IMG/VR virus record: IMGVR_UViG_2703718817_000009
Coordinates: 1-44,978 of that record
Origin: a virus
Taxonomy: Duplodnaviria; Heunggongvirae; Uroviricota; Caudoviricetes
Length of the DNA: 44,978 nt
Reading direction: 5' to 3' (one strand)
Positions 39,001 to 44,978 of this stretch are shown here, one piece after another. Numbering within the stretch: the first letter of the stretch is position 1; the number at the start of each line of letters is the position of its first letter. The position numbers were made by a program.

Positions 39001-42000
39001 CGCCAACATGGATTCTATTTGGCGATGAAGACAAGCAGCCATCACCACCTATTGAGGAGCCAGTTGCTCTATCCCCCAAAGAACATGAGCTCCTTGAGCT
39101 TTTTAATGCATTGCCTGAATCAGAACAGGATGCTCAGCTCACCGAGATGCGCGCCCGAGTAAAAAATTTCAACAAACTCTTTGAAGAGTTATTAAAAGCC
39201 CGTCAACGAACAAACAAAAGATAACGCAATCAATGCGTTATCTTTTTGGCTGCCCAAAATGTTAGCCATGACAAACAAAAGTACTTGACCAAATTGTTAG
39301 TTATGGCTAATCTTGCTTGCATCAAGACACCGCACGGTGTTCTCAGCAAACAGTTCCGCTACCCCGGCGTTAAGGGGAAATGAGGTCAACATGGATACTA
39401 TCGATCTTGGCAACAACGAATCTCTGGTATGCGGAGTATTCCCCAACCTGGACGGCACGTTTACCGCGATGACGTATACCAGAAGCAAAACGTTTAAAAC
39501 TGAAGCTGGCGCGCGTCGCTGGTTAGCCAGAAACACTGACTGATGAGGTTGACGATGGAATTTAAAGATTTACCAGTACCATTCCAGGAAATGGCAGCGA
39601 ATATAGTTCGTTCTCAACTGGCGACTCTTGACCTGAGTACCGTAGAAAAAGAAACCATCGATAATATATCCGGTAACGTGCGTCGAACCTTTATCGGGCT
39701 GTACGAAGAAAAGTGGCCATTCGGCGGACAACATTCGCCTGAAAACAAGAATCAAGCGAATGATGAGAAGCTGAAACACGTTATCGCCTTACTGCTGGAA
39801 GATGCAAAACGTCTACAGCAACTGGAACCAAATGCAGGCACCGAAGCCCGCATCTGGATTGCCATAGAATCACTCAAATGTGAAAGCGATGATTATTTAA
39901 AAACCATAATTAAAACAACTCAGCTTTCTGAAGAGCTACCGAAGAAATTGCCATAATAATATGCTTTTCTTATAGAGGGGTTAGAAATATGGGCCAGCAT
40001 TATAGCAGGCACATATAACAGAAAGTATTTTAAATATTACGCCGTATCTTGTGATTGTTTTTTAATATATTCATACAAGCGCACAAGTTGTTTCAACTCT
40101 TCAAAGCACATAGCGAAATTTTCAATTTTTCCGGCGTTGATTAGTGCCAGAAGAGCCTGATGTGCGCAAGCATATGGATCATTACAGGGCTAATAATATC
40201 AACTTGCATATTATCCTCCATAGAGGTTCCGGGTTAATGATGGAGACCAACACGCTGTCACGTGTGGTCGTGCGCCGGACACGGATAAGAATCCGGCACT
40301 GACAGTTTGCTGAAAGGATATTTCCCTGAAAAGTCAGGGCATAACACGAAAGCGCACGGCGAAGTTAGTCTCTCTGTACAGGTCGTCGTTAAATGTAATT
40401 CGATCATGCGCTTCCGGTTGTGGCAATCCGCGAAATGGCGCGGCGGTAAGTATGGCCGGGGCTTCCTCCATTGCTCCAGATAATGCACCGGGTTGTCAGG
40501 TTGACCATACGCCTGAGTGACAACACCGCCACAACAACCTCTGTTATCACTTTTCTGGTGATTCGGCGGAAATGGATATCCGCCATTTTTAAAGTGTATT
40601 TTGTGATGCGGTGAATGCGGCTAAGCGCACGCGGAACAGTTAAAACAAGCGGTCTTTTACTGGCGTAACAGACATCAACTAACAATCCGGCGTTAATTGT
40701 TAACTGGTTAGCGTCACCTGGAGGCACCAGGCACCACATCACAAAATTCATTGTTGAGGACGCGATAATGGAAACGTCACTACCAAACGTTAATACGTCT
40801 GAAGGGTGTTTTAATATTGGTATTCTGCTCAGTAACCGGGAGTTTACTGAGGACGCCATCAGGATGAGAAAATATGAGCCTTATCTTCTCAATGATAATT
40901 CCATACTCTCCAGAATTGCCCTTCTTGAACTTGGCATTTTCGGAGGGCAGCAGTGAGTTCAGCGTTTGCACTGATGATGACGGTTTTTCTGATAACAGGT
41001 GAGCCACAGAATGTGATTACCGGAATTTATGCCAGTAAAGGATCCTGCCTCCAGGCAAGAGACGAGCAAAAAATTTCTGGTGAATGCCTCCCGTTAAACA
41101 AAGTATCACTGTACCTGAATAACGAAACACCGGCTGGATAACCCACCAGCCATATTAACGCCATACCAACGGATTAAAAATGCCAGCAATGGCAGGGATT
41201 CGTTCACCCTGAAATCTGTAATGAGGTTTAAACACAATGAGTAAAATATTTATTTGCGCCGCCATTCCTGACGAACAGGCAATAAAAAACGAGGGCGCTG
41301 TTGCTGTGGCCACTGCCATTGAAGCCGGTGATGAACGTCGCGCCCGCGCAAAATTTCACTGGCAATTCCTTGAACATTATCCGGCTGCTCAGGACTGCGC
41401 TTATAAATTTCTTGTCTGTGAGGATAAACCCGGTACACCCCGCCCAGCCCTCGACTCCTGGGATGCTGAATATATGCTGGAAAACCGCTGGGATGAGGAG
41501 TCTGCTACCTTTGTCCCGGTTGAGACTGAATCAGATCCGATGAACGTCACTTTTGACAAGCTGGCCCCTGAAGTACAGAACGCTGTCATGGTTAAGTTCG
41601 ACACATGTGAAAACATCACCGTTGATATGGTGATTAGCGCACAGGAATTGTTGCAGGAAGACATGGCAACCTTCGACGGACATATCGTTGAAGCGTTGAT
41701 GAAAATGCCAGAAGTTAACGCCATGTATCCGGAGATTAAACTGCATGCCATCGGGTGGGTTAAGCATAAATGTAAGCCTGGTGCTAAATGGCCCGAAATT
41801 CAGGCAGAGATGCGCATCTGGAAAAAACGTCGCGAAGGTGAACGCAAGGAAACCGGAAAATACACGTCTGTTGTTGATCTCGCCCGCGCCAAAGCCAATC
41901 AACAGTACACTGAAAATTCAACAGGAAAAATCAGCCCGGTCATTGCTGCCATTCATCGCGAATACAGGCAGACATGGAAAACACTGGATGACGAACTGGC

Positions 42001-44978
42001 CTACGCTCTCTGGCCTGGTGATCTGGATGCCGGAAACATTGACGGCAACATCCATCGCTGGGCAAAAAAAGAAGTTATCGACAACGACCGCGAAGACTGG
42101 AAGCGTATCTCGGCATCAATGCGCAAACAACCTGATGCACTTCTATACAGCCGTCAGACTATTTTCGGCCTTGTTCGTGAACGTCCGATCGACATTCACA
42201 AAGATCCCGTGGCGCTGAACAAATACATCACTGAATACCTGACTACAAAGGGCCTATTTGAACATGAAGAAACAGACCAGAGCCCTGCTGATGCTCTCCA
42301 CCTGTCAGCAGAACAAACTGATTCAGTGGAGACGGCAGAATCCGATACTCAAAAAAATGAAATCCTGGTGGAAGCTGAACCATCTGTAGAGCGTGAAGGG
42401 CCTTTTTATTTCGTCTTTACCGATAAGGACGGGGAAAAATACGGTCGCGCAAACAAACTTTCTGGTCTGGACAAGGCGCTGGCTGCCGGGGCTACTGAAA
42501 TCACGAAAGAAGAATATTTTGCCCGCAAAAACGGCACATACACGGGCTTACCGCAAAATACAGATATATCTGAACATTCAGAACAACCAGAGCCGGTAAA
42601 AGTTACCGCTGACGAAGTAAACAAAATTATGCAGGCAGCCAATATCAGCCAGCCTGACGCCGATAAGTTGCTTGCTGCATCACGTGGTGAGTTTGTTGAA
42701 GGGATTAGCGACCCGAATGATCCGAAATGGGTGAAGGGGATTGAAACCTGCGATTCTGTGAACCAGAACCAGTCAGAAACGGAACAGAACGACCAAAAAG
42801 CGGAACAAAACAGCCCAAATGCGTTACAAGACGAGCCAGAAACGAAACAATCCGAACCAGTAGCGCAACAGGAAGAGGAAAAAGTCTGTACCGCCTGCGG
42901 TCAGAGCAGTGGCGGCAACTGCCCTGATTGTGGCGCGGTGATGGGCAACGCAACCTACCAGGAAACACTCGATGAAGAAAATCAGGCTGAAGCTCAGGAG
43001 GAAATGGAAGGCTCTGGCGGCGATCACTACCACACCACAGATAATGAAAGTGGCGAGACAGCAAATCCCTTAATTAAGGTGAACGGTCATCGTGAAAGCA
43101 CATCCACCAGCAGGTTGTGGCACCATCTGATGATTGACCTTGAAACAATGGGCAAAAATCCTGATGCGCCAATAAACGCTCTGGCCGGTAAGTTTTTTGA
43201 TCCGGCAACCGGAGAGATGGGGCCAGAATTCAGCAAAACTATCGATCTGGAAACCGCAGGCGGAGTCATCGATCGGGACACCATTAAGTGGTGGCTGAAA
43301 CAGTCACGGGAAGCACAATCAGCCATTCTGACCGATGAAATCCCGTTGGATGACGCACTGTTGCAATTACGGGAATTTATCGACGAAAACTCCGGTGAAT
43401 TTTTTGTTCAGGTCTGGGGAAATGGAGCCAACTTCGACAACGTGATTTTACGCCGTTCATATGAACGGCAGGAGATCCCCTGCCCGTGGCGTTACACCAA
43501 TGATCGTGATGTAAGAACGATTGTTGCCCTGGGGCTGGTGATGGATTTCGATGCTCGAAGTGTCATCACATTTGAGGGTGAACGCCATAATGCCCTGCAC
43601 GATGCGCGTTACCAGGCAAAATACGTTTCAGCTATCTGGCAAAAACTGTTCCCGAATCAGGCTGATTTTTAATGTTCAACCCATATCGCCGCCCACCAGC
43701 TATAGTGGCGGCGGTCATGCTGTAAGGCACGTGACCACATGTACGAATTAACTCTATCGCCAGCAGAAATTCAAGAGATCACGAGATACGAACGGTATAC
43801 AAAACAGCAACAACAGTTAAGGTTGCACGGTATCCCATTTGTACCCGGTCCTAAAAACGAACCAATAGTTCTTCGCAGTGATGTCCCGCGCGGACTGACT
43901 GCGATACCGAAAGTATCTGAACTGGTTTCTGCTGACCCCGATTTTGAGGCGCTGAACAATGGGAAGACCAAGAAAAAACAAAAAAGATAATGCACTACCG
44001 CCACGTGTTAGATCGAATGGTTACAGTTACGTATGGAAACCCGAAGGAAGCACAAAAACTATAGGGCTCGGAAGAGTGCGGGAAACCACCATAGCTAAAG
44101 TCTGGCAGAATTATGAACTGGAAAAAGCAAAACGCCACAACATAATGACCGTCGCTAAATTATGGCACATGTTTATGGATTCCCCCGCATTTACAGAACT
44201 GGCCCCCAGAACCCAAAAAGATTATCGGCAACATCAGAGGGCGTTGCTGGCAGTCTTCGGAAAAGTACTGGCTGATAATGTAAAAATTGAGCAGGTAAGA
44301 ATTTTCATGGATAAACGGGGGATTGAGAGCAAGACCCAGGCAAACCATGAACTGGCAAGTCTCAGTCGTGTATACGGGTGGGGATATGAGCGTGGATATG
44401 TGAAGAATAACCCATGCAAAGGAGTCAGGAAATTTACGCTTAAAGCCCGCACTGTTTACATCACAGATGAACAGTATGCGGCGATATATGCGGAAGCAAT
44501 ACCACAGTTACGCATTGCAATGGAGATATCCTATCTTTGTGCGGCAAGACTCGGTGATGTGCTCGAGCTGAAATGGCAGGATATTATGGATAAAGGGATC
44601 TACATTGAGCAAAACAAGACCGGCACCAAACAAATCAAGGAATGGTCTCCACGATTACGAACCGCGATCCAGTTAGCCAGAAATGTATCTTCAGGCACAT
44701 GTGAATATGTGATCAACACAACCAAGGGCGGGAAAGTCATAGCTAAAACGCTAAACAACTGGTGGAACCAGGCTAAACACGCAGCCGAGAAAAAATCCGG
44801 CGTCCCGTTTGGGTGCAATTTCCATGACATAAAAGCCAAAGGGATATCAGATTACGAAGGAAGCAGTCGCGACAAACAGATTTTCAGTGGACATAAAACA
44901 GAAAATCAGGTGTTGATTTATGATCGTAAAACAAAAATCACGCCGACACTGGATTTGCCACTTGTGGTCAGCAAGTAG

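Follow-up and report, generated by a model that had tools for sequence, protein, structure and literature searches.

The lambdoid Shiga toxin (Stx)-converting prophage in IMG/VR record IMGVR_UViG_2703718817_000009 encodes an 811-amino-acid (aa) protein that joins a predicted DEDDh (DnaQ-fold) 3′–5′ exonuclease to a scaffold shared with YdfE and with RecE of the Rac prophage. The stretch analyzed, called the window here, covers positions 1–44,978 of that record, with the late genes on the − strand. The gene fills the slot of recE-recT in Rac, between the kil/dicB genes and xis-int. Our tentative proposal, plausible but quite possibly wrong, is that the protein is a lytic-phase DNA-end-processing enzyme that trims 3′ ends on a recombination scaffold, alongside host RecBCD.

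An open reading frame (ORF) scan of the window found a single unbroken ORF from ATG at 41237 to a stop at 43672 on the + strand, the same uninterrupted frame that was called in a first-pass annotation made from the sequence alone. GAGG lies 10 nucleotides (nt) 5′ of the ATG. The PHROG 2082 profile spans the entire protein, and NCBI holds a 100% identical protein labelled 'exonuclease' or '3′-5′ exoribonuclease'. An AlphaFold2 (AF2) model was built with 37 homologues, and its confidence is given below as the predicted local distance difference test score (pLDDT). The ORF and its parts are as follows.

41237..43672, + strand: whole ORF, 811 aa, with YdfE/RecE-type scaffold, linker and DEDDh exonuclease (ORF call, Pfam, NCBIfam, PHROG).
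41237..41848, + strand: N-terminal alpha/beta domain, aa 1–204 (YdfE_N region; matches the K-12 pseudogene ydfE).
41969..42268, + strand: helical domain, aa 245–344, start of the RecE-homologous region (AF2 pLDDT ~89; aligns from RecE residue ~278).
42389..42547, + strand: small beta-hairpin/helix domain, aa 385–437, with the GPFYFVF...GRANK motif (AF2 pLDDT ~85).
42647..42871, + strand: conserved box shared with RecE, aa 471–545, including a motif at aa 476–501 (42662–42739) (BLASTP to RecE; low pLDDT).
42887..42931, + strand: zinc knuckle CTAC-x7-CPDC, aa 551–565 (cysteines C551, C554, C562 and C565).
42932..43120, + strand: acidic, weakly conserved linker, aa 566–628 (pLDDT <35).
43121..43639, + strand: predicted DEDDh 3′–5′ exonuclease domain, aa 629–801, PF16473, DexA clade (Pfam).

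By sequence, the C-terminal ~180 aa form a complete DEDDh exonuclease of the T4 DexA clade. Residues 629–801 match the full PF16473 model (positions 1–177 of 177) at E 2.7e-60, with 203.5 bits against a cut-off of 27. Exo I is D634-x-E636 (MIDLET), Exo II is D734 (NGANFD), and Exo III is H784-x4-D789 (HNALHD). The DEDDh residues are invariant in an alignment with stand-alone homologues and the E. coli nuclease EcD, and the catalytic motifs are kept in at least 155 of 162 homologues. T4 DexA (8KEL) is the nearest solved relative of aa 629–811 (phmmer E 3e-5). A profile built from the domain and its stand-alone homologues matches 8KEL at E 4.8e-17, and no other nuclease falls below E 0.2. Rv2179c, the RNase that gives PF16473 its Pfam name ('3′-5′ exoribonuclease Rv2179c-like'), was not found even at E 10. 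The domain appears nearer by sequence to the DNase DexA than to the RNase naming its family. The profile match, the DEDDh residues and the relation to DexA bear out the DnaQ-like Exo I/II/III motifs recognized in the first pass.

The domain shares its DEDDh catalytic residues with DexA (8KEL/8KEN), and both would be phage-encoded 3′–5′ exodeoxyribonucleases. DexA differs in being a stand-alone protein of 227 aa from a virulent phage, with extra loops, and identity between the two is in the twilight range. Stand-alone DEDDh versions of 190 aa, with 51–55% identity to the domain and starting MNNLMIDLETMG, are found in Salmonella phage 118970_sal3 and Yersinia phage PY54 (gene 51). In 118970_sal3 the gene is immediately upstream of int. 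The nuclease thus also occurs on its own, scaffold-free, in this slot or close to it. The two stand-alone genes have the following coordinates.

L007, 4998–5567, + strand: stand-alone DEDDh gene.
L008, 3998–4570, + strand: stand-alone DEDDh gene.

An internal start at M632 of the 811-aa gene would give a free nuclease domain, but it has no convincing Shine-Dalgarno sequence upstream.

The sequence ahead of the nuclease was first described as about 550 aa of acidic sequence without recognizable domains. It is acidic, with 18.7% D+E against 11.8% K+R over aa 1–550 and 39 D/E against 12 K/R over aa 438–628, but it is not domain-less. Domain and structure prediction, suggested with the first-pass annotation, gave three confident AF2 domains (aa 1–204, 245–344 and 385–437), with aa 438–628, an acidic and probably mostly disordered stretch of ~190 aa that includes the conserved box and the knuckle and ties these domains to the nuclease, low-confidence. 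Precomputed Pfam annotation of the identical protein P0001 lists PF27430 (YdfE_N) and PF27432 (YdfE_C). Over aa 1–256, identity to the protein encoded by the K-12 Qin pseudogene ydfE is 95%. A set of 38 homologues shows no variation at R386, G388, P389, F390, Y391, G403, R404, N406 or K407. Searching PDB sequences with a profile of the scaffold gave no match.

Homology to RecE begins within the scaffold. The NCBIfam RecE model (NF007259) matches aa 246–611 at model positions 271–600 (E 1e-65), with a score of 222 bits that is below the equivalog cut-off of 1269. BLASTP against K-12 RecE aligns aa 262–613 to RecE 278–591 at E 4e-45, with 46% identity over aa 474–674, reaching into the nuclease domain. 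The box and the CxxC-x7-CxxC knuckle are almost identical to those of Rac RecE. RecE residues 600–866, which hold the PD-(D/E)XK nuclease, gave no match; similarity ends at about RecE 591, where the DEDDh domain begins. The knuckle is the cysteine ribbon that was first read as CxxC-x11-CxxC at the C-terminus. It sits instead in the linker ~65 residues upstream of the exonuclease domain. Of the 162 full-length DEDDh homologues, 158 have it, as do Rac RecE and a few further members of the family, but most of the divergent members lack it.

The ratio of nonsynonymous to synonymous substitution rates (dN/dS) was computed per module against the orthologue in phage HannyBb and is below 1 in every module. 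It is 0.12 for the N-terminal domain (aa 1–257), 0.12 for the DEDDh nuclease domain, 0.22 for the conserved box (aa 471–545) and 0.59 for the final linker (aa 571–628). These ratios indicate purifying selection on the folded domains and the box, and weak constraint on the linker. The motif at aa 476–501 is near-identical in Rac RecE and under purifying selection, yet is low-confidence or disordered in the AlphaFold model. It behaves like a candidate partner-binding short linear motif.

The family is narrow, with only 234 relatives of aa 1–628 among 1.84 billion representative proteins. A first homologue search was dominated by near-identical E. coli sequences, and many database entries are fragments. 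Homologue diversity came from a search of 50%-identity representatives and a second search seeded with an Enterobacter relative. Module combinations were assigned by per-module phmmer on 150 representatives. Two N-terminal types were found, the YdfE type and the Rac RecE type (PF06630), with the middle region and box common to both. Each type occurs with both DEDDh and RecE-nuclease C-termini.

YdfE-type N-terminus with DEDDh C-terminus: the 811-aa protein and P0121.
YdfE-type N-terminus with RecE PD-(D/E)XK C-terminus: P0131, P0189 and P0207.
Rac RecE-type N-terminus with DEDDh C-terminus: P0134, P0137 and P0233.
Rac RecE-type N-terminus with RecE PD-(D/E)XK C-terminus: P0237 and others.

A third C-terminus of ~300 aa occurs in ~780-aa proteins of Enterobacter, Klebsiella and Kosakonia, which NCBI labels 'exodeoxyribonuclease VIII'. 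These proteins have no local Pfam match beyond the precomputed YdfE_N and YdfE_C. The third C-terminus carries the motif KKSLTDAIKKALSxLGFSADVWLG, is modelled at pLDDT 73, and aligns with RAD52 by hhalign in a colinear but weak manner. It is read here as a predicted Rad52-fold annealase. The Enterobacter gene of this type occupies the corresponding slot, and a Sipho_Gp157 gene overlaps it downstream.

Gene neighbourhoods were compared in 80 IMG/VR loci related to P0134, a representative with RecE_N and DEDDh modules. These loci carry the RecE-type N-terminus, not the YdfE type of the 811-aa protein. A recT gene is downstream of the RecE-nuclease forms in 33/33 loci with at least 1.5 kb of downstream sequence. 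Downstream of DEDDh forms it is found in 0/22 loci with enough downstream sequence and in 0/43 overall. The DEDDh domain therefore replaces a cassette of RecE nuclease domain plus recT on the same scaffold.

Rac RecE (exonuclease VIII, K-12) is the closest parallel in plan, with a large N-terminal region, a linker and a C-terminal exonuclease. Both genes occupy the early-left slot just upstream of xis-int, and the homologous middle, box and knuckle are shared. The 811-aa protein ends in a DEDDh (3′–5′) domain, whereas RecE ends in a PD-(D/E)XK (5′–3′) nuclease. The extreme N-terminus is of YdfE type here and PF06630 in RecE, and no recT follows the 811-aa gene.

The leftward early operon runs in the order repressor, small ORFs, dicB-like, ydfD-like, 811-aa gene, excisionase and integrase, and the 811-aa gene is its last large gene. 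PHROG profiles run against each sizeable ORF from the repressor to int (38817–44978) revealed no Exo, Bet, Gam, RecT or Erf-type gene; the first-pass annotation had stated the absence of exo/bet/gam-like genes for the interval from the dicB module to xis. They gave only DicB-type and YdfD-type proteins, proteins of no assigned function, the excisionase and the integrase. In the nin region, RusA and a DUF968/HNH-type protein were the only recombination-related candidates matched. A lambda-type recombination (Rec) module, with an annealing protein, 5′–3′ exonuclease and/or anti-RecBCD protein in the early-left operon, is absent here. The statement that the gene stands in place of such a module is sound for position and evolution. 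Functional substitution for Exo/Bet/Gam is unsupported, because the nuclease has the opposite polarity and neither an annealase nor an anti-RecBCD partner.

The window contains 16 Chi sites (GCTGGTGG) against 2.4 expected, and no shuffle reached 16. Thirteen are on the − (late-gene) strand and three on the + strand.

15522, 20447, 22114, 22161, 22563, 30137, 30454, 32404, 32473, 35407, 41143, 43104 and 43693, − strand: Chi sites.
43104–43111, − strand: Chi inside the 811-aa gene, flanked by Chi at 41143–41150 and 43693–43700 (motif scan).

Zheng et al. (Genome Res 2025, PMC12315714) showed that Rec-less lambdoid phages abound in Chi and that RecBCD aids one such phage, LLS. The Chi excess and strand bias of the window fit this pattern. 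The window, which may be a partial prophage, shares the marks of that class, namely at least 8 Chi on the late-gene strand, a scarcity of Chi on the opposite strand and the lack of a Rec module. The same study describes sporadic DnaQ-type nuclease genes near int and 'RecE-2' proteins without a nuclease domain (PMC12315714). Those lambdoid nucleases resemble the 811-aa gene in position near int; they are stand-alone proteins of ~190 aa and lack the YdfE/RecE scaffold. Among the compared loci, those with DEDDh forms hold 123 Chi in 383 kb, of which 120 are on the strand opposite the gene, and those with RecE nuclease (RecET) hold 9 Chi in 342 kb, a contrast of 10 lineages against 1, as the RecE-nuclease loci form one Rac-like cluster. 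Counted over the gene and the 5 kb before it, each of the 10 DEDDh sequence clusters has 1.6–4 Chi.

The proposed 3′-end-trimming role would work as follows. The gene would be transcribed only after induction, within the DicA/CI-repressed dicB operon. The scaffold would carry exchangeable effectors that act on DNA ends to a single site or partner of phage recombination, and its DEDDh version would deliver a 3′-end-degrading activity. On phage DNA that is replicating or has been cut, the enzyme would remove single-stranded 3′ tails or flaps. Trimmed ends would become usable by host RecBCD-Chi-RecA, which, together with phage RusA, would carry out recombination-dependent growth. RecBCD requires blunt or nearly blunt ends, and host 3′–5′ single-stranded DNA (ssDNA) exonucleases have been proposed to prepare them. 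Given this requirement, cooperation with RecBCD and Chi would be a coherent role for a 3′-trimming nuclease. E. coli ExoI (SbcB) and ExoX are DnaQ-fold 3′–5′ DNA exonucleases with activity on 3′ tails and an influence on both the RecBCD and the RecF pathway. They offer a functional analogy only, being host-encoded and without the scaffold. The proposal draws at the sequence level on the DexA-clade nuclease carried by a RecE/YdfE scaffold, the lack of any annealase, 5′–3′ exonuclease or Gam match in the element, the Chi-rich genome, and scaffold paralogues with recombination effectors.

A broader version is doubtful. The YdfE/RecE N-terminus would be a general delivery scaffold that takes a 5′–3′ exonuclease with RecT, a Rad52-fold annealase or the 3′–5′ exonuclease to one shared partner or DNA structure. 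Its DEDDh version, present in most E. coli strains and in Stx phages like this one, would couple 3′ trimming to RecBCD-Chi, and phages with it would have a third, host-dependent lambdoid recombination module instead of none.

Several points weigh against a recombination role, starting with the single RecE-nuclease lineage in the Chi comparison. DnaQ-type 3′–5′ exonucleases usually inhibit homologous recombination (PMC12315714), and an xonA mutation is reported to enhance RecET-mediated assembly (PMC13048471). The RecE N-terminal region has no assigned function and is dispensable for basic RecET recombineering (PMC11611040), which makes 'recombination scaffold' a case of guilt by association. 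A structure comparison found no informative structural relatives of the N-terminal model. The stand-alone 190-aa nucleases in the int-adjacent slot indicate that the scaffold is not required for the job of the nuclease. The literature searched, including that on PF16473/DUF5051 and ydfE/exoD, holds no biochemical or genetic study of the 811-aa protein. Finally, a role in defence against phages has been reported for EcD, a stand-alone homologue in E. coli (PMC12153337).

This last point raises the alternative of an HREX-type superinfection-exclusion or anti-phage nuclease, which would spare unmodified DNA, degrade the 5-hydroxymethylcytosine (5hmC) DNA of T-even phages and so protect the lysogen. 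Kang et al. (NAR 2025, PMC12153337) reported that EcD carried on a plasmid shields E. coli against T4, and that the enzyme breaks down T4 DNA while leaving unmodified DNA intact. EcD belongs to the same Pfam family and is homologous to aa 632–811 (38.8% identity over 183 aa, E 9e-36). It was recovered by the 17-mer of its forward cloning primer in six IMG/VR contigs, as a stand-alone protein of 189 aa that starts MIDTET and has A78 as published.

L032, 5679–6248, − strand: EcD in an IMG/VR viral contig; also in L014, L019, L029, L030 and L035.

EcD is itself found in a prophage early region near int, as the 811-aa gene is, though without the scaffold. The EcD contigs carry integrase, repressor-like regulators and DNA methyltransferase in this region. 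The word 'prophage' does not occur in the main text of PMC12153337.

At positions tied to 5hmC recognition and oligomeric state (PMC12153337), the 811-aa protein departs from EcD. DexA W152 corresponds to W in EcD but to T754 here (phmmer and MAFFT), and the closer stand-alone homologues lack this Trp too. A tryptophan, W751, is found three positions before T754. DexA D169 is E in EcD, and its counterpart here depends on the alignment (L767 by MAFFT, D770 by phmmer). The tetramer-forming DexA D90, lost in the EcD-like 'dimer-only' state (A78), persists here as D706. A PADLOC scan matched no defence system. Expression in the lysogen is unlikely because the gene is in a repressor-controlled early operon and has no promoter of its own; a promoter scan found no sigma-70-like promoter upstream of the ORF. 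The dicB promoter of Qin drives dicB-ydfD-ydfE under the control of the repressor DicA (bioRxiv 10.1101/2024.09.21.614188). The RecE-type scaffold and the swap with RecE nuclease and recT would be left unexplained. We consider an anti-phage role unlikely.

It is quite unlikely that the protein is a nucleotide-salvage or RNA-turnover enzyme, converting oligonucleotides, host DNA fragments or short RNAs to mononucleotides in lytic growth, either as a scavenger like T4 DexA or as an exoribonuclease or nanoRNase. The naming of PF16473 after the Mycobacterium tuberculosis exoribonuclease Rv2179c and the many NCBI copies labelled '3′-5′ exoribonuclease' suit it, and the PF16473-type domain is also widespread in virulent phages (630 phage records). 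DexA has a role in scavenging host DNA, and human REXO2 is its closest structural homologue (PMC12153337). Set against this, the domain is far nearer by sequence to the DNase DexA than to any solved RNase, and salvage explains neither the fusion to a RecE-type scaffold, nor the fixed position next to xis-int, nor the exchange with RecE nuclease and recT. We know of no temperate lambdoid phage that breaks down host DNA.

A counter-defence nuclease would act soon after induction or infection and destroy nucleic acids of host immunity that expose a free 3′ end, for example retron multicopy single-stranded DNA, ssDNA or RNA of other defence systems, and signals made of linear oligonucleotides. The early-operon timing would suit this, and the int-adjacent slot is accessory and mosaic (PMC12315714). 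No known anti-defence family was matched in Pfam, NCBIfam, PHROG or PADLOC, and the other cargos of the scaffold are a 5′–3′ exonuclease with RecT and a predicted Rad52-fold annealase. Such a function is very unlikely. The last alternative, whose artefact form the first pass also raised, is a decaying or artefactual fusion, with two unrelated ORFs joined by assembly or frameshift error or kept as an unselected relic; although K-12 has only an IS2-truncated ydfE and many database entries are fragmentary, it is effectively refuted by conservation, as the intact ORF occurs at ≥80% coverage in 3441 complete genomes and in the viable phages HannyBb, Tritos and mEp460, with a full-length PHROG profile, intact motifs, and dN/dS well below 1 in the folded modules.

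The gene is common. Its DNA matches 4504/5426 complete E. coli genomes (83%); the 3441 genomes with at least 80% gene coverage are likewise complete E. coli genomes, and the gene occurs at up to 10 places per genome. The NCBI Prokaryotic Genome Annotation Pipeline (PGAP) labels it 'exonuclease' or '3′-5′ exonuclease' across E. coli. Besides HannyBb, Tritos and mEp460, it is found in the isolated phage PhiR42_1 and in Stx2a and PPompW phages. The family is therefore already known and annotated in thousands of genomes, and is not new as a gene. The idea that K-12 exoD (DLP12) is a C-terminal fragment of the family was not supported, as tblastn at E 1e-5 gave no match at that locus.

The neighbourhood cI - ydfABC - (dicF) - dicB - ydfD - exonuclease - xis - int is found in ST130, K-12 Qin, 689R5 and Tritos. 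HannyBb has the same repressor-to-integrase layout, with the intervening genes unnamed. YdfE of K-12 Qin shares the dicB and ydfD neighbours; IS2 has cut K-12 ydfE down to an N-terminal stump, but the gene is intact here. Neighbouring and other genes of the window are as follows.

38817..39224, + strand: DicA/CI-type repressor, head of the leftward operon (PHROG repressor matches; 87.5% nt identity to the K-12 dicA region).
40768..41141, + strand: upstream genes of the same operon, dicB-like (40768–40956) and ydfD-like (40953–41141) (PHROG; PGAP names in ST130 and K-12).
43739..44978, + strand: downstream excisionase (43739–43990) and integrase (43959–44978) (PHROG; order kept in ST130, Tritos, 689R5 and HannyBb).
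27622–28581, with 28675–28923 and 30588–31160, − strand: Stx A ORF, downstream of three tRNA genes and a Q-like antiterminator (PHROG, tRNA scan).
34288–34462, 35166–35249, 35275–35348 and 34565–35113, − strand: cluster of sok, C4 and isrK RNAs with an anti-repressor gene (window scan).

The ORF at 27622–28581 encodes the Stx A subunit (stxA), with a phrog_866 match at E 2e-209. Other genes of the window include the Q-like antiterminator, RusA, a DNA methyltransferase and O/P-like replication genes. The immunity and early-left region is of Qin/DicA type, not of lambda/933W type.

Several RNA features were also observed. The dicF region upstream of dicB (window 40486–40800, + strand) has diverged. 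The K-12 dicF flanks align there at 89–96% identity, ~19 nt of the dicF small RNA core are missing, and Rfam detects no DicF. An STnc100-like match at 40583–40800 scores 30 bits, below the gathering threshold of 47, and a full STnc100 copy is present at 27052–27266 on the − strand. The anti-repressor gene in the early-right (nin) region lies amid a cluster of RNAs of the sok (antitoxin), C4 (antisense) and isrK types.

The gene is among the commonest E. coli prophage genes, often in multiple copies, and is also carried by Shiga-toxin phages. It shares its scaffold with RecE, a recombineering workhorse whose N-terminal ~560 residues have no assigned function. If the scaffold is a general delivery module, it would give a first handle on this long-unexplained region of RecE. 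The family is also a possible source of new recombineering parts. If the DEDDh version cooperates with RecBCD and Chi, it would bear on the replication and recombination of Rec-less Stx and lambdoid phages, and hence on the origin of new toxin-phage mosaics.

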